Shown in pieces: positions 2,592 to 56,547 of a stretch of DNA of 64,000 nt. Under the pieces are notes generated by a model, which did not search any database, was not told the DNA's origin, and worked only from the letters and a program-made list of their open reading frames with translations. This DNA is from Dehalococcoidia bacterium (GTDB lineage Bacteria; Chloroflexota; Dehalococcoidia; Plut-88900). Both the position numbers and the translations under genes were made by a program. The stretch spans positions 281,449 to 345,448 of the forward strand of contig OY764147.1 in NCBI GenBank assembly GCA_963668115.1, written 5' to 3'. Within the stretch, counting starts at the first letter, position 1; each line of letters opens with the position of its first letter.

Positions 2592-3749
2592 CTAATTGGC
2601 GATGCCGTATAGCCTGGCGCAATTGTCCCAGAGGACTTTCCTCTTGGATTCTTCAGATAGGGGAAGTTTCAGGAATTCGTCGATGGCGAAGGGGTACTTG
2701 CCGTCGGCGTGGGGGTAGTCGGTGGAGAAGACGAAGTTGTCGTCGCCGATCCAGTCTACGGCATATTCGGCGGGGCCTTCGTCGGGGTCTATGGCGAGGT
2801 AGCACTGGCGCTTGAAGGTCTCGCTGGGGAGGACGGACTGGTAGCGGGAGGCCTGTTCCTGGCGGTGCTCGTAGTGCTCGTCCATGCGCCAGAGCCAGAA
2901 GGGGAGCCAGCCCGTGTTGCACTCGAGGAAGGCGACCCGGAGTTCCGCGTATTTGTCCAGGATGCCGCCGGCGCAGAAGCAGAGACAGGCGTACATCTGC
3001 TCGATGGGGTGGCAGGCGACGTGGCCCATAGTCCAGATATGGTCGGGCTCATCGTAGAAGCGGTCGGCGATGGCCTGGGGAAGGCTGCACTTGAAGGTCT
3101 CGTGGAAGGTTACGGGGACGTCCAGGTCCTGGCACTCCTGCCATAGGGGGTCGTAGACGGGGTTGTGCCAGTTGCGGCCCTGCACGGGATTCGGGTGGAG
3201 GTATGCGGAGAGGAAGCCCATTTCGTTGTGGGTGCGGCGCACCTCGGTGACGGCTTCCTCAACGTCGGTGGCGAGGACCATGGCGGCGGGACGCATCTTG
3301 TCGGGGTCCTGGCTGCAAAAGTCGTGAATCCAGTCGTTGTAGGCCCGGGCCACGGCACCCGCGTAACGGCCGTCCTGGTAGGGGACGCCTGCGACCGACA
3401 TGCCCCGGGTGGGGAAGATAATGGCCAGGTCGAGCCCCTCGGTGTCCATGGCATGAAGCTGGGACACGGGGTCGAAGCCGCGGTCTACGGCAGGCTTCAG
3501 GTACTTGTTCCCGTGCTCGGCCTCTACTTTCCGGCGGCTTGTTTCCTCCTCGTTGCTTTGGATGTCAGCATCGGCGAGGAAGGCGGCGATGGGCTTTCCC
3601 TGAATGGCCATGTTCATGACCAACTGGTTTTCGGTCATCCCGACGGGCGCGAGGTCACGGTACTCGGGGTCGATGTTATTGAGCCACACATCCCAGGTCT
3701 CGTTGACGTGCATATCGCTGTCCATGACCTTGAAGCCGTTCTTGGTCAT
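2592..3749 (-). CDS. Amidohydrolase family protein, tandem paralog of 1418..2575
   Basis: Start reassigned to MTKNGFK (ATG 3749, GAAAGGA upstream), giving the same length and N-terminus as the neighbour; DSDMH and FSTDYPH motifs. Confidence 0.9.
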   Translation of the reverse strand: MTKNGFKVMDSDMHVNETWDVWLNNIDPEYRDLAPVGMTENQLVMNMAIQGKPIAAFLADADIQSNEEETSRRKVEAEHGNKYLKPAVDRGFDPVSQLHAMDTEGLDLAIIFPTRGMSVAGVPYQDGRYAGAVARAYNDWIHDFCSQDPDKMRPAAMVLATDVEEAVTEVRRTHNEMGFLSAYLHPNPVQGRNWHNPVYDPLWQECQDLDVPVTFHETFKCSLPQAIADRFYDEPDHIWTMGHVACHPIEQMYACLCFCAGGILDKYAELRVAFLECNTGWLPFWLWRMDEHYEHRQEQASRYQSVLPSETFKRQCYLAIDPDEGPAEYAVDWIGDDNFVFSTDYPHADGKYPFAIDEFLKLPLSEESKRKVLWDNCARLYGIAN

Positions 3750-3862
3750 AGCAAGAGTCCTTTCGGTGTGGATTGGGGTCTCGGGGGTCTGGATGGGGTC
3801 ATGATACTCCGAGGGTTGGGGGTAATCAAACCTGTGCATTCGTCCGGTAGATTGGCGGCACA

Positions 3863-4486
3863 CCGGGCTTTTATTCGGTTGTGGGGTTTCGTTTTCTGTT
3901 TTGTCTGTTGGGTTTTGGGTAGGCGATGGAGGTCCGGGACTCTGATGCAGGATGACTATGGCACCTATGCCGACGCTTCCAGTCCGCCATAGCGGATGTA
4001 TCACATCGGCGTCTGTACTGCCTAATCCCCACACATGCCATTGGGGACTTGCCTGTGTCGAGGGCGTCCCTGGGTGGGGCAATCCGTCCTGCATCAGCGC
4101 TCGACCGCTGAGCGGGACAGCATTCGGCTCGAAGCCGTCACGGGCGGAACGGAGTCCTCCGATGATTACGACGGCGGAGCCGCGTAGGGGCACTGAGGCC
4201 CTGATCCCGGTAACGCCGGGCCGTAAGATTTCGCCGGCGAGTCAATGCCAGCGACATAGGCGTCCCAAGATAGGGAGCACCGATTCGGCAGAGGCCCCTT
4301 AGCGGGGCATACCGCGTAGAGCAGATGGACCTTCCATCGCCTGGATGGTTAGGGAAGGGGCACGGGACCCTTGTAGTGAGGGGGTGACATCCCTGACGTC
4401 TGTGGGATGACATCCTCGGATGGGTCGGGTGGGCTTCCCTGGGTTTTTGGTTCCTCCTTAAGTTATTGGATTAGTGTTCGCGAACG
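3863..4486 (-). ncRNA. Putative large structured ncRNA, family copy 1 (unrecognised)
   Basis: Promoter at 4493-4521; closing helix 4327-4342 with 3921-3935; nested 11-bp helix 3942-3952/4087-4097; motifs shared with copies 2 and 3. Confidence 0.7.
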
Positions 4487-4492
4487 GAGGGT

Positions 4493-4521
4493 ATGATAAC
4501 GCCTTTGCTCAGACGTGTCAA
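4493..4521 (-). promoter_or_regulatory. sigma70-type promoter TTGACA-17-TATCAT driving ncRNA copy 1
   Basis: Minus strand ttgaca cgtctgagcaaaggcgt tatcat; nearly identical at 19285-19313. Confidence 0.85.
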
Positions 4522-4544
4522 GCAAATGTGCGGGTTTGGAGGGA

Positions 4545-4940
4545 ATTCCCTCCGGCCCCTTGGGGAACCCTCACCTTCTGGCCCCCTCTCACGCCATAGG
4601 CGCATCTTCGACCCTTAGGGCCTCTAGTTCAGTACTGGGGAGAAAGGGAGGGAACGGAGGTGGATTGCGAGGATGAAGGTGATTATTCCGGAGGGATGGA
4701 TTCCCGACTACTCGGGAATGACGAAAAGAGGTGGGTGGGGATGATGGGGGTGAGCGGTGGGCTGGCGCAACAGATTCACGCCATAGGCGCACGCCCAGGC
4801 GCATCTTCGACATCTCCGACCTAGCGGGGCATCGGAATGGGAAGGGGAGGGGTGAGTTGCGGTGGTGTAGGTGAGTGTTTCGGAGGGATGGATTCACGCC
4901 ACAGGCGCATCTTCGACCTGCCTCCGCAGGAATGACGAAG
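4545..4940. repeat. Mosaic of REP-like palindromes with nested short inserts
   Basis: GGATTC..GAATGAC hairpins at 4698-4722 and 4890-4936, repeated acgccataggcgcatcttcgac-like unit, conserved gtttcggagggat-like lead-in. Confidence 0.75.
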
Positions 4941-18441: not shown

Positions 18442-18471
18442 AGTATAGCACAGGGCAGGAATGGGGGACAA
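18442..18471 (-). promoter_or_regulatory. Probable rpsB promoter (TTGTCC-18-TATACT, extended -10)
   Basis: Minus strand ttgtcc...tgtgctatact about 50 nt upstream of rpsB. Confidence 0.6.
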
Positions 18472-18507
18472 TCCGATGCGGCCGTGGGGGCCGTGGAAGG
18501 GGCGGGG

Positions 18508-18657
18508 TTTTGATTGAACGTTGATTGAACATTGATTGAACTCGTAGCTGTTTTGATTGAACGACGCCTGAAGGGGATTTCTGGGGATTTCGCGTGGTGC
18601 AGGGGTGCGGATTTTTGATTGTTTTGCGGTTTCAGGCACGGCTTTGATTGTTTAAGA
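18508..18657. repeat. Iteron-like element with 4x TTGATTGAAC plus 2x TTGATTG, copy A
   Basis: Units at 18510, 18521, 18532, 18553; whole element repeated at 54958-55118. Confidence 0.85.
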
Positions 18658-18738
18658 AACGGGGAGGGAATCCCCACCCATCCCCGCATCCGGGATGGAT
18701 TCCCGACTTCTCGGGAATGACGGAAGTAAGGGCGGGGA

Positions 18739-18763
18739 GGGCGCCCACGAGGGACGCCCCTAC
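18739..18763. repeat. GTAG-type REP (reverse orientation)
   Basis: gggcgcccacgagggacgcccctac; related at 36737-36760 and 55286-55310. Confidence 0.7.
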
Positions 18764-18783
18764 GGGGGAGGAAGAGAGAGGGG

Positions 18784-19278
18784 CCGGGTTGTTTGGTTGT
18801 GGGGTTTGGGTTTGCATTTTGTGTGTTTGGGAGGGGGTTGGCGATGGAGGTCCAGACTGCGCAGCCCCGCTGTTTGGTGGGTCAGGGTCGAGTAAGTCTC
18901 GGTGTGGGGCATACCTGTCCACCGGCGGCGCCCGGTCATAGTGAGGGCGGGGGGCGCCAACCCGCCACCGTCGGCCATGGTGTGGAATGCACCGATGGCA
19001 AGGACGGTGGAGTCCCTGGAGGGCCCTACGGCCCGGTTCCCGCCGTGGGCGGGGTGTTGTGCTTCGCCGGCAAGTTGAAAGCCGGTTACGTAGTGCATCC
19101 TGTTAGGGAGCACCGAGGGTGCAGGGTCTCTATAAGAGACGGCCTGCAGGTGTTAAGTCGATGGACCATCCATCGCCTGGGGGGTTAGGGAAGGGGCACG
19201 GGGACCCGGGTGGGGCCGGGTGGGCTTCCCTGGGTTTCTGGTTTCCTCCTTGTGTTACTGGGTTAATGTTCGCGAACG
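18784..19278 (-). ncRNA. Putative large structured ncRNA, family copy 2 (unrecognised)
   Basis: Promoter 19285-19313; closing helix 19162-19177 with 18840-18854; leader and tail homologous to copy 1; pseudoknot module homologous to copy 3. Confidence 0.7.
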
Positions 19279-19284
19279 GAGGGT

Positions 19285-19313
19285 ATGATAACGCCTTTGC
19301 TCAGGTGTGTCAA
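19285..19313 (-). promoter_or_regulatory. sigma70-type promoter TTGACA-17-TATCAT driving ncRNA copy 2
   Basis: Minus strand ttgaca cacctgagcaaaggcgt tatcat. Confidence 0.85.
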
Positions 19314-19547
19314 GCAAATGTACGGGTTTGGGGGAAAGTTGGAGGTGAGTGGGGATGATGGGGGTGGGTTTAGGCAAGGGGGAGGGGGTGAGTTGCGGGG
19401 TTGTAGGAGGTTGTTTCGGAGGGATGGATTCCCACGGAGGTGGGAATGACGGGTAAAAAGGGTGGGAATGATCCGCCATAGGCGGACAGGCTGGGGTGGG
19501 GGGTTGGGGTGATATACTCGCGGGCACTTTATTCGTGGGACTGGATA

Positions 19548-54803: not shown

Positions 54804-54957
54804 TCCGTCCTCCGACTCGGGTGCAGGACCAATCAATGGAGACCGGCACCACACTAGGTTTGGGAGATTTTACGGATGAGGCGGAAGTTTGCACAAGTTA
54901 CCGTTCCGGTCCGGCGGGATGACGGGACGCGGGTTTTTCTTGATTTGTGGGGGTGGT

Positions 54958-55118
54958 TTTTTGATTGAACGTTGATTGAAGTTTGATTGAACTCGTAGCT
55001 GTTTTGATTGAACGACGCCTGAAGGGATTTCCGGGGAATTCGCGTGTCGCAGAGGGCAAGGGGATGGGGTGGGTTTTTGATTGTTTTGCGATTTCAGGCA
55101 CGACTTTGATTGTTTAAG
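54958..55118. repeat. Iteron-like TTGATTGAAC element, copy B
   Basis: Units at 54961, 54972, 54983, 55004; homologous to 18508-18657. Confidence 0.85.
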
Positions 55119-55193
55119 GGACTGGGGAAAAACCCTCACCCCCTTTATCCCAATCTCCCTTAGGGTCATTAAGGGATATGGGGAGAGAAGAAC

Positions 55194-55233
55194 AGAGGCA
55201 GAGGTTGGCGCTTTTGCGCCAACCTCTGCCTCT
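55194..55233. repeat. Perfect 18-bp inverted repeat with 4-nt loop
   Basis: agaggcagaggttggcgc tttt gcgccaacctctgcctct. Confidence 0.9.
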
Positions 55234-55459
55234 AGTTCAGTACTGGGGAGAGGGGACGGGGCCACGCCCCACCCGACACCCGGGAGGGCAGGTCTCGTGC
55301 CTGCCTCTACAGAGGAGGACGGGAGAGGGGAGGGGATGGAGTGAGTTGCGGGGTTGTAGGTGATCGTTTCGGAGGGATGGATTCCCCACGACTTCTCGGG
55401 GGCAGGCTCTGCCTCCGCAGGAATGACGGTGGGAAGGGCGAGTATGACGAAGAAGGAAG

Positions 55460-56290
55460 GGAGGGGGTGGAAGGTCCCGGACGGTTTGTGCAGGAAGTCG
55501 GCGACGCCTGTACCGATGCGGGGTGTCCGCCCCTGGGGACGGTCCACACCAGCGTCGAATCTGCGACAGCCCCATACTTCCGAGAGGGTGTGGACGAGAC
55601 GCGAGAAATTCTCGCTCTGGGGCAGCCTCGCCCACCGGAAGTGCTCTACCACCCTGAGGGATGGGAGCGGAGACCCGTGACCGCCGTTCGTAGTCGGAAG
55701 CTCTCCGGTTGTGACGACGGTGGAATCCTTGCCCCATACTTCCGATAGGGTATGGACGAGACGCGAGAAACTCTCGCTCTGGGGCAGCCTCGCCCACCGG
55801 AAGTGCTCTACCATCCTGAGGGATGGGAGCGGAGACCCGTGACCGGCGTTCATAGACCGGAACATGCCGATGGTGACGACGGTGGAATCCGAGAAGGGTT
55901 CTGTGGCCCGATGGAGCAGCTTAACACCGTGCTCCTGAGCGTCGCCTGACGGGGCGAAACCGTTGCGACCTATGAGTGGGGCGCTCACCTGGCAGTTGCC
56001 CTTGAAGAGGGTCTGCCTTGATTTGTCCGGGGACATTCCATGTGAGGGGCGGGACGGTGATTGATCGCTGCGAAGGACGAGGCGTTGGGCCTTTGGGCAG
56101 CGCTTGTAGTGGGTGTTGGGATGCAGGATGTGAGGTGGAAAGAGAGTGAAGAGGAGGCGCGTGTCGTGGGCCGGGCGTTGGGGTGCCGCTCGGGTGAGAC
56201 GGGGCCTATGTAGGCCGGTGCGGCTCATGGGACTCCTTTGTTCCTTTTCCTTTCCTGTGATGGGCACCGAGGTATGGGATCGGCGTCCTG
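55460..56290 (-). ncRNA. Putative large structured ncRNA, family copy 3, with duplicated 162-nt module
   Basis: Promoter 56297-56325; closing helix about 56026-56040 with about 55468-55482; motif identity with copy 2. Confidence 0.65.
55569..55890. repeat. Tandem duplication, 162-bp period
   Basis: Units start at 55569 and 55731; near-identical except for a variable hairpin. Confidence 0.93.
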
Positions 56291-56296
56291 GTGGGT

Positions 56297-56325
56297 AGTA
56301 TAGCACGAGGGTTCAGATAGTGCAA
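56297..56325 (-). promoter_or_regulatory. sigma70-type promoter TTGCAC-17-TATACT (extended -10) driving ncRNA copy 3
   Basis: Minus strand ttgcac tatctgaaccctcgtgc tatact. Confidence 0.75.
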
Positions 56326-56354
56326 ATGTTCAATTTAGAAGGGCTGGAGGGGGA

Positions 56355-56547
56355 GGCGTGAGCGGGCGGGGTTGTAGGTGAGTGTTTCGGAGGGATGGAT
56401 TCACGCCAATGGCGCATCTTCGACCCACCTCCGTGGGAATGACGGGTTAAAGGGGCGGGAATGACGGGGGAAGGGAGTCGGGGTGAGTGGCGAGGTCAGG
56501 GGCGAGTGTTTCGGAGGGATGGATTCCGGCTCTGGGGCCGGAATGAC
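56355..56547. repeat. REP mosaic (two GGATTC..GAATGAC units with conserved lead-in)
   Basis: Hairpins at 56397-56443 (with 22-nt insert) and 56521-56547. Confidence 0.75.

Follow-up and report, generated by a model that had tools for sequence, protein, structure and literature searches.

We describe here a mosaic, promoter-bearing repeat family in the genome of a Dehalococcoidia bacterium (GCA_963668115.1), two copies of which lie in a 64,000-nucleotide stretch of contig OY764147.1 (the window; coordinates below are window positions unless a genome is named). Both are read on the minus strand. Copy 2, at 19334-18784, is a compact element organized like a transcription unit, with a promoter, a leader containing a Shine-Dalgarno (SD)-like box and a hairpin, a core enclosed by inverted-repeat arms that would pair as a closing helix, and an A/C-rich tail; copy 1 follows the same plan. 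We consider copy 2, with a probability of about 0.6, to be a genus-restricted, multi-copy, mosaic and non-coding repeat built as a transcription unit, likely selfish and/or cis-acting. The first-pass annotation had described both copies as a fixed frame carrying an exchangeable or rapidly diversifying RNA. Our analyses showed that copies 1 and 2 both have cores derived from a 393-nt segment of terminase-large-subunit-like genes, now decayed and non-coding, and that promoter, leader, hairpin inserts, core and tail have all been reshuffled among copies and orthologous loci.

The genome (G000; 3,012,175 bp) is a metagenome-derived single contig with a completeness of 92.7% and a contamination of 4.7%. 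The first 125 nt of the element were recovered at 61 places in it with E values of 1e-6 to 1e-60, which is far beyond chance. Both arms and the A/C-rich tail were located at 59 of these places, with arm-to-arm lengths of 200-543 nt, while the two others lacked the arm pattern; a 62nd copy with a different 5' frame was detected via its core. Elements are 0.42-0.94 kb long and, by our own estimate, the family makes up roughly 1% of the genome. DNA similarity searches found it in all nine genomes of the genus (8-46 matches in each of the eight others; roughly 350 copies in total). The 22 genomes searched outside the genus, which represent other genera of the class and include three members of the same family, gave no match. 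The 59 cores form ten sequence clusters, with copy 1 belonging to type 1 (eight members) and copy 2 to type 4 (six members). A search of the whole window against Rfam 15 yielded one tRNA only and no other family at the gathering threshold; relaxing the E value to 10 for both copies returned noise, and twenty further loci gave 0 matches. A keyword search of the literature on structured or multi-copy RNAs of Dehalococcoidia or Chloroflexota retrieved nothing relevant, and the accessible part of one preprint mentions only a tandem-array cluster for Chloroflexota (10.64898/2026.10.21.760802).

The origin of the copy 2 core was revealed by a genus-wide search, in which it matched places outside the elements, namely four intact open reading frames (ORFs) of ~460-490 codons. 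Core types 1 and 4 share ~72% nucleotide identity with these genes over 220-270 nt (E 1e-29 to 1e-31). The copy 2 core itself is 72% identical over 219 nt to the gene at G000 1872357-1873955 (E 1.5e-29) and 51% identical over 72 amino acids by blastx (E 7e-23; best value for types 1 and 4, ~1e-23), and one type 1 core aligns with a terminase-like gene from arm to arm. The aligned segment encodes the first two thirds of the nuclease domain, arms included. The encoded proteins contain Walker-type motifs (read by eye) and match PHROG terminase-large-subunit families (5909, 5713 and 38; E 2e-6 to 8e-5), together with a match to Pfam Terminase_6C that lies below the cut-off (E 0.011); a phmmer search of the terminase-like protein against the PDB gave 0 hits. 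The protein family comprises >3,400 homologues, mostly from Dehalococcoidia, and among those listed all source names are 'hypothetical protein', some carrying PF17289 (Terminase_6C).

Several short motifs had been noted as all that the two cores keep in common. The motifs are real, but they are relics of conserved terminase-like codons: ttcgccggc is the complement of GCCGGCGAA, the A-G-E codons of the nuclease motif GIDLAGE, and ggagtcc is the complement of GGACTCC, which lies within the RDST codons. The catalytic Asp of GIDLAGE reads Gln in copy 2, and some copies are frameshifted. Variable columns are spread over the three codon positions as 15/14/10 in the core, compared with 29/29/58 between intact paralogues, and no reading frame is open in all members of any core cluster; we conclude from this spread and from the lack of a common open frame that the core is now non-coding. 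Copies 1 and 2 therefore hold diverged versions of the same cargo rather than unrelated ones. For the other eight core types no significant source gene was found by blastn against the genome, blastx against ORFs of at least 150 amino acids or tblastx against the terminase units, and their longest translations resemble random GC-rich peptides. In the tree bearing on an independent capture of types 1 and 4 from different paralogues, which is unresolved, type 1 has a long branch of its own, and type 4 falls into a polytomy together with the genes.

The four terminase-like genes belong to stand-alone units of 2.5 kb (G000:C1 697553-700019, 1581123-1583547, ~1872343-1874949 and ~2004087-2006434), each with an element-like promoter followed by genes for a 125-aa protein, a ~70-aa hydrophobic protein and the 462-aa terminase-large-subunit-like protein. 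The units have no further phage genes next to them, and one lies just upstream of rpmH. A separate repeat family of ~1 kb, with copies 85-94% identical, was observed in the window at 55261-56475 (G000 336709-337923) and at four other genomic places; within it, a 160-nt unit that also has ~70% identity to the terminase-like gene is duplicated in tandem. Long ORFs running across this family (window 54873-56312 and similar loci) matched no Pfam or PHROG family.

Comparison of the elements with these genes also showed that the closing helix was inherited from the terminase-like gene, because the gene segment is bounded by the same inverted repeat. In all four G000 genes, GACGATGGAAGGTTCC and GGA(A/C)C(C/T)TCCATCGTC lie exactly 393 nt apart, and the pair is also present in all 12 genes of the genus that were compared (L045-L048, L054, L056, L058, L066, L067, L069, L073 and L074). 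This repeat of 15-16 nt spans the codons D-D-G-R-F and G-T/P-S-I-V, among them AGG, presumably a rare Arg codon given the high GC content of the genome, and forms a predicted duplex of -15 to -28 kcal/mol; its two 3' variants pair in different registers, with the helix kept in both. An inverted repeat maintained within coding sequence suggests that selection may act on nucleotide pairing itself. The element arms are the gene's repeat words made perfect, with duplexes of -33 to -54 kcal/mol across the 59 copies. The first 9 bp are constant across core types; the continuation differs (GGUCC/GGACC versus AGACGC/GCGUCU) and is followed by type-specific extensions, giving helices of 15 bp in copy 2 and of 25-30 bp with internal loops in other types. 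That the arm sequence changes while the pairing is kept supports a real helix.

Inverted repeats of at least 15 bp that flank a 0.2-0.5-kb segment between a strong promoter and a gene are also the layout of an invertible switch, in which the arms would be sites for a site-specific invertase and the core would flip as a terminator or switch between the element promoter and the host gene. Inversion between the arms had been raised by the first-pass annotation as well. However, we found 0 minus-strand matches of at least 40 nt among the 59 cores in assembled sequence, every terminase-type core lies in the gene's sense orientation, and the repeat pair occurs inside intact genes that inversion would destroy; no invertase partner was noticed, although none was looked for. 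Taken together, these data make such a switch extremely improbable.

The mosaic structure of the family became apparent when frames and cores were compared. Between copies 1 and 2, the frame from CCAAACCCG to the start of the leader hairpin shows ~10 differences in 117 aligned columns (~91% identity, close to the ~90% estimated at first by eye), including an identical run of 38 nt (19304-19267 = 4512-4475), the longest shared by the two. The arms were located in both copies, those of copy 1 being GGCGATGGAAGGTCC (4341-4327) and GGACCTCCATCGCC (3935-3922), and the tails have a mean column identity of 79% when aligned. Arm-to-arm lengths are 338 nt in copy 2 and 420 nt in copy 1, or ~310 and ~390 nt without the arms, in agreement with the core lengths given previously. 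A conserved, expression-type frame of shared promoter, leader, arms and tail does surround a variable core. The frame nevertheless varies: exchanges have affected promoter, leader, hairpin inserts and tail as well, also between orthologous loci, so that it is as exchangeable as the core. Four parts stay constant: the SD box, the leader hairpin at its base, the arms over their first 9 bp, and the tail.

Congruence of frame and core, which the first-pass annotation had named as grounds for refuting its model, was not observed, an outcome in favour of that model. On the tree of the 5' frame, which is built on 95 columns and poorly resolved, 34 label changes are needed to place the ten core types, compared with a minimum of 9 and a mean of 41.9 for shuffled labels; when only well-supported branches are considered, 2-4 changes are still required in eight of the ten types. 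Eight core types occur with at least two leader types and six with both tail classes (A and B). In three copies the leader is the same from the SD box onward, but the promoter module in front of it is unrelated. At the copy 1 locus, G000 and G007 are alike in position, core type and tail and differ in their promoter modules; at the copy 2 locus, G001 combines a type-1-like core with the other tail class, and the elements of G006 and G008 differ in promoter, leader and core. Homologous recombination between dispersed copies would be sufficient to produce this mosaicism. The promoter is indeed better kept than the core, a pattern first noted as inverted conservation, but this is the pattern expected of repeat spread and homogenization and need not mean selection.

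An alternative 5' frame found in one G000 copy (L078, 807.9-808.5 kb, minus strand) and in L080 and L081 (G006 and G008) has a TTGACT-17-TATCAT promoter and an SD box followed by an ATG and a conserved Arg-rich N-terminal peptide (M-S/R-R-T/N..RRTRALR..RPA.DTR), the reading frames differing after ~27 codons. The peptide could be a short leader peptide or a relic.

Comparison of orthologous loci showed that elements have been gained, lost and flipped. The copy 2 locus is occupied in the forward orientation in G000, G001, G006 and G008, reversed in G002 and G003, where the element adjoins the promoter of the divergent gene, and empty in G004; G005 holds a short remnant only and G007 a partial downstream module. 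About 11 nt of the element 3' end persist beside the -35 box in G005 (L087; cf. L084 and L085 of G002 and G003), a remnant that suggests loss by deletion rather than clean excision. The copy 1 locus is occupied in G000 and G007 (two of the nine genomes) and cleanly empty in G002-G005, with ~12 nt separating the stop codon of the upstream gene from the -35 box.

The position of the elements relative to host promoters is non-random, and many of them end directly against the -35 box of a promoter that they face. At filled sites, the element end ...GCACAGG is followed by T and then by the host TTGAxx box. Of 57 copies, 27 have a promoter-like site on the sense strand within 200 nt of the 3' landmark, compared with 0 on the antisense strand. 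The distance from the last GAATA motif to the start of the -35 box is 41-43 nt in ten class-B copies, as it is in copy 1. The next gene is co-oriented in ~47 of the 59 copies, according to a rough reading-frame test based on third-codon-position GC content (GC3). Co-orientation of this kind would also be expected of a long cis-regulatory, riboswitch-like leader of the downstream gene. Yet host promoters lie between the elements and the downstream genes and are present at empty orthologous sites too, the downstream genes seen are unrelated to each other (for example, amidohydrolase-type and pyrR-like genes, read by eye), and ~12 of the 59 copies face the 3' end of a gene, all of which renders a riboswitch-like role highly improbable.

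To what extent the RNA itself is under constraint differs between core types. The copy 2 core folds with its arms at z = -5.6, but its type has no convincing conserved interior fold. In core type 7 (ten sequences from three species, 86-96% identity, 149 pairs), only 13% of the paired columns are variable, compared with 53% of the unpaired ones, a contrast that persists when the structure is derived from one sequence alone (p = 9e-10). Changes that keep pairing as G-U outnumber those that break it as A-C in the sense direction (20:8 and 21:11) and not in the antisense direction (9:11 and 16:19); the ten sequences contain no double compensatory change. RNA-level selection is thus likely for at least one core type, namely type 7. 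This constraint lends some weight to the idea that the element is an expression and processing cassette, in which RNase III would cut the bulged helix and free or circularize a trans-acting core RNA, the cores being different functional RNAs. Such a role would suit a helix of the lengths given above, whose distal part varies while its pairing is kept, and RNase III is encoded in the genome; Correia elements, moreover, are described in the available part of the literature as being cut or protected by this enzyme (PMC2649163). Set against this are the nature of the copy 2 core, a decaying gene fragment without a conserved interior fold, and the presence of the same helix within intact protein genes, and we regard a processing cassette as unlikely.

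At the other extreme, the elements might be inert debris, that is, decayed fragments of the terminase cassette and of other genes lying between repeats, with neither expression nor function. A gene-derived core that has lost its coding constraint, the absence of interior covariation in the copy 2 core type and the tolerance of REP (repetitive extragenic palindromic) insertions in the leader hairpin would all be in keeping with decay. Debris should not, however, have a promoter (11 of 12 consensus matches) and arms conserved over ~60 copies, with arms and leader recurring genus-wide while cores diverge, nor a non-random position and orientation relative to host promoters, nor a high copy number in all nine genomes; this explanation therefore appears very unlikely to us.

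Some observations weigh against the element being a mobile, RNA-producing repeat of the kind that we favour. The interiors of the cores are not special: when 28 nt were trimmed from each end of representative cores, z values were mostly -1.5 to -3 (type 7, -5.7; type 9, +0.3), which is no better than the -2.5 to -5.3 of intact coding segments. Among 17 terminase-type cores from the nine genomes, 55 consensus pairs included 6 compensatory ones, with a covariation term of +0.39. The excess of G-U-keeping over A-C-breaking changes in this type (21:9) is equalled on the reverse complement (23:12), so that it has to be regarded as a method artefact, and it disappeared with a single-sequence fold (42:37). 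The energies of the closing helix are equal on both strands and do not distinguish an RNA from a DNA hairpin. As in a miniature inverted-repeat transposable element (MITE), the copies are many, short and ORF-less (61-62 copies, with no frame open throughout any core type). By eye, though, no inverted correspondence is seen between the 5' limit and the 3' end (...GCACAGG), a comparison made without a formal search and at a 5' boundary blurred by REP modules. No secure target-site duplication was seen at the two loci compared, where the 5' junctions are not resolvable; a candidate 3-bp duplication was withdrawn because it rested on a site still holding an element remnant. Neither a full-length autonomous relative among the 61 hits nor a transposase partner was identified; with 3' arm and tail within ~0.9 kb of the 5' part in 59 of 61 cases, there is no room for a gene. 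The copies that face a gene's 3' end mean that the promoter association is not absolute. Finally, some of the mosaic combinations could be assembly chimeras, although the same patterns occur in eight other genomes. Contigs from four runs of one study contain short unitigs over the core (for example, 18871-19183) that break at the repeated frame, none spanning the whole stretch, and the joints in these contigs lie in repeats and have low likeness.

The strand symmetry of the helix energies would also fit an element that works at the DNA level, with the inverted repeat and a set of downstream iterons serving as recognition sites (pac/cos-like and dispersed over the chromosome) for the co-resident small and large terminase-like proteins or another recombinase, and with the RNA being incidental. 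The four 2.5-kb units, whose promoter is similar, do encode a small, a ~70-aa and a terminase-like protein, all 12 terminase-like genes compared have kept the inverted repeat, and iterons with 11-nt spacing (2-7 per copy) follow 27 of 29 class-A tails. The iteron module is absent, however, from 27 of 30 class-B copies (present in 3 of 30), promoter and SD-like box are kept in almost every copy although a pure DNA site would not need them, and the sense-strand wobble bias of type 7 favours RNA. We consider a purely DNA-level element to be quite unlikely. The iteron module (~170 nt) sits between class-A tails and the next host promoter and looks like a protein-binding array.

Table 1. Sequence features of copy 2 and its surroundings, with the extent of copy 1 (window positions)
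Feature	Positions	Strand	Basis or remark
Upstream conserved stretch, approximate 5' limit of family-wide similarity	19314..19334	-	Alignment of 61 copies
Own sigma-70-type promoter, TTGACA-17-TATCAT (predicted)	19285..19313	-	11/12 consensus matches
Perfect palindrome GTTCGCGAAC (10 nt), at the predicted transcription start or immediately behind it	19268..19277	-	Sequence
Shine-Dalgarno-like AAGGAGG, no start codon behind	19245..19251	-	One-mismatch regex
Leader hairpin (CAGGGAAG ... CTTCCCT)	19187..19232	-	Conserved in copies read
Closing-helix 5' arm GGCGATGGATGGTCCA	19162..19177	-	Pairs with 18854-18840: 9 bp, 1-nt bulge, 6 bp
Non-coding 307-nt core of copy 2 (type 4 of 10)	18855..19161	-	Six members in genome
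Core part homologous to nuclease-domain region of terminase-large-subunit-like genes	18884..19101	-	blastn, blastx
Closing-helix 3' arm TGGACCTCCATCGCC	18840..18854	-	Arm search
A/C-rich, G-poor tail, class A; candidate rut site	18784..18839	-	Composition
REP-type hairpin repeats between tail and downstream module	18665..18783	-	Kind and number vary between copies
Downstream module ending in iterons GTTCAATCAA, 11-nt spacing, 4 here	18499..18664	-	~30 further genomic copies
Host promoter TTGTCC-18-TATACT of downstream gene 18390-17506; outside element	18442..18471	-	In all nine orthologous loci
Copy 1: type 1 core, class B tail, 3' end flush with host -35 box	3830..4545	-	Same plan as copy 2

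The anatomy of the element (Table 1) is shared by most of the family. Similarity among the 61 copies starts ~20 nt 5' of the -35 box, with unrelated sequences or REP modules further upstream, and the same promoter is present in 58 of the 61, with equally many consensus matches in copy 1 as in copy 2. Other leader types have different perfect palindromes at the same place (GGTCGACC and GTTCGAAC, as well as GTCTAGAC in G002 and G007); one, GTCCGAAC, is imperfect, and all remaining leader types have perfect ones. Symmetry at the start site is thus kept while the sequence changes between leader types, and the palindrome could be an operator or an RNA dimerization site. The SD-like box was detected in 56 of the 59 complete copies, the other three being those with the alternative promoter module, and no ATG, GTG or TTG was seen by eye at initiation distance from it. 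Nested repeat insertions of 45 to 260 nt occupy the tip of the leader hairpin in many copies, copy 1 among them. The insertion in copy 1 is REP-like and 45 nt long (4385-4430), and the REP-type hairpins nested here and in many other copies have a GACGTC loop; a second nested module of 90-130 nt is also found in the tips, and insertions sometimes occur twice. The REP families of this genome appear to land preferentially in the elements or to be tolerated there. An ORF that overlaps copy 1 (2592-4193) is not part of the element but is the downstream amidohydrolase-type gene read through its upstream region.

The 55 nt that follow the 3' arm in the 59 copies consist of 44% A, 43% C, 7.6% G and 4.7% T, and no intrinsic terminator was found on the element strand of copies 1 and 2. 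The tail is a candidate rut (Rho utilization) site, a kind of site for which ~60-80 nt of C-rich, G-poor and unstructured sequence are expected: its 55 nt are C-rich and G-poor, and the genome encodes Rho, as it does RNase J and RNase III; termination itself is predicted.

Based on this anatomy, we propose that transcription would start at the near-consensus promoter and produce a stable, heavily paired, closed RNA, whose 5' end may be protected by the SD-like box and the leader hairpin, by analogy with STAB-SD. Rho would terminate transcription on the tail, a step proposed on the grounds of its C and G content (43% and 7.6%), the lack of an intrinsic terminator and the presence of Rho. At the DNA level, the element would spread via a promoter-proximal insertion process, and homologous recombination within the conserved frame would exchange modules. 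We think it most likely that the element is selfish and/or acts in cis on the promoter next to it, and the copy 2 core is probably not a specific trans-acting fold.

If transcribed as the anatomy suggests, some sixty promoters would claim a large share of the transcriptome in a widespread uncultured genus of Dehalococcoidia, and a strong, outward-reading unit would be set directly against host promoters. The family also offers a natural case in which a coding fragment with a pre-existing inverted repeat becomes the core of a non-coding unit, and one in which module-by-module reshuffling can be traced across nine genomes. The fit of the element end to the -35 box is apparently precise, and we know of no bacterial parallel to it. 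A more general caution is that 'conserved motifs' of a variable RNA core can be codon relics. We also entertain, as a doubtful extension, that the genus runs an inverted-repeat-directed cassette system, in which segments bounded by GGCGATGGA/TCCATCGCC, including the terminase nuclease segment, would be captured and exchanged into a dedicated high-expression frame and this frame delivered precisely to the upstream edges of host -35 boxes, yielding ~60 promoter-coupled RNAs genome-wide. Were this true, the RNAs could partner the small and large terminase-like proteins, as decoys, guides or packaging/regulatory RNAs, or dimerize via the start-site palindromes, and the element would represent a novel class of mobile RNA gene directed to promoters, as opposed to a large MITE.

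How the element relates to known systems depends on the part considered. Core types 1 and 4 can be aligned over their full length to the nuclease segment of terminase large subunit genes, from which they differ in being frameshifted, in having lost the catalytic Asp in copy 2 and in showing no codon-position signal. OLE, ROOL, GOLLD and HEARO/omega RNAs are several hundred nucleotides long, heavily paired and sometimes multi-copy or located on mobile elements; unlike these, the present family has no Rfam match and no single conserved core, and covariation is weak or absent in the copy 2 type. Pneumococcal BOX elements and enterobacterial BIMEs consist of interchangeable modules, lie in intergenic regions, have a stable predicted RNA fold, measure 50-300 bp and are not known to have a promoter of their own. 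The present element is likewise modular and intergenic, with a stable fold predicted when transcribed, but it nests REP-type repeats rather than being one itself.

For the 5' end, the closest likeness is the STAB-SD of Bacillus thuringiensis cry3A mRNA, where, according to the available part of the source, a 30S subunit on an untranslated SD box blocks RNase J1 (PMC4113751). Here, too, an SD-like box lies near the predicted 5' end with no translation start behind it, and RNase J is encoded; however, the phylum is a different one and the RNA behind the box is non-coding. As a whole, the element shares with Correia repeat-enclosed elements (CREE) of Neisseria, ERIC, REPIN and 'mobile promoters', as far as the available parts of the sources describe them, a multi-copy, ORF-less, intergenic and promoter-bearing nature, inverted repeats that form RNA helices, adjacency to genes and variation between strains (PMC2649163, PMC3575422). 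In contrast to them, it is four to eight times longer, its inverted repeat is internal and surrounds the core instead of being terminal, its core is gene-derived or of ten kinds, and it forms a full promoter-leader-tail unit aimed at a host promoter. While a member of none of the Correia, ERIC, REPIN or 'mobile promoter' groups, the element is most like promoter-bearing non-autonomous repeats.

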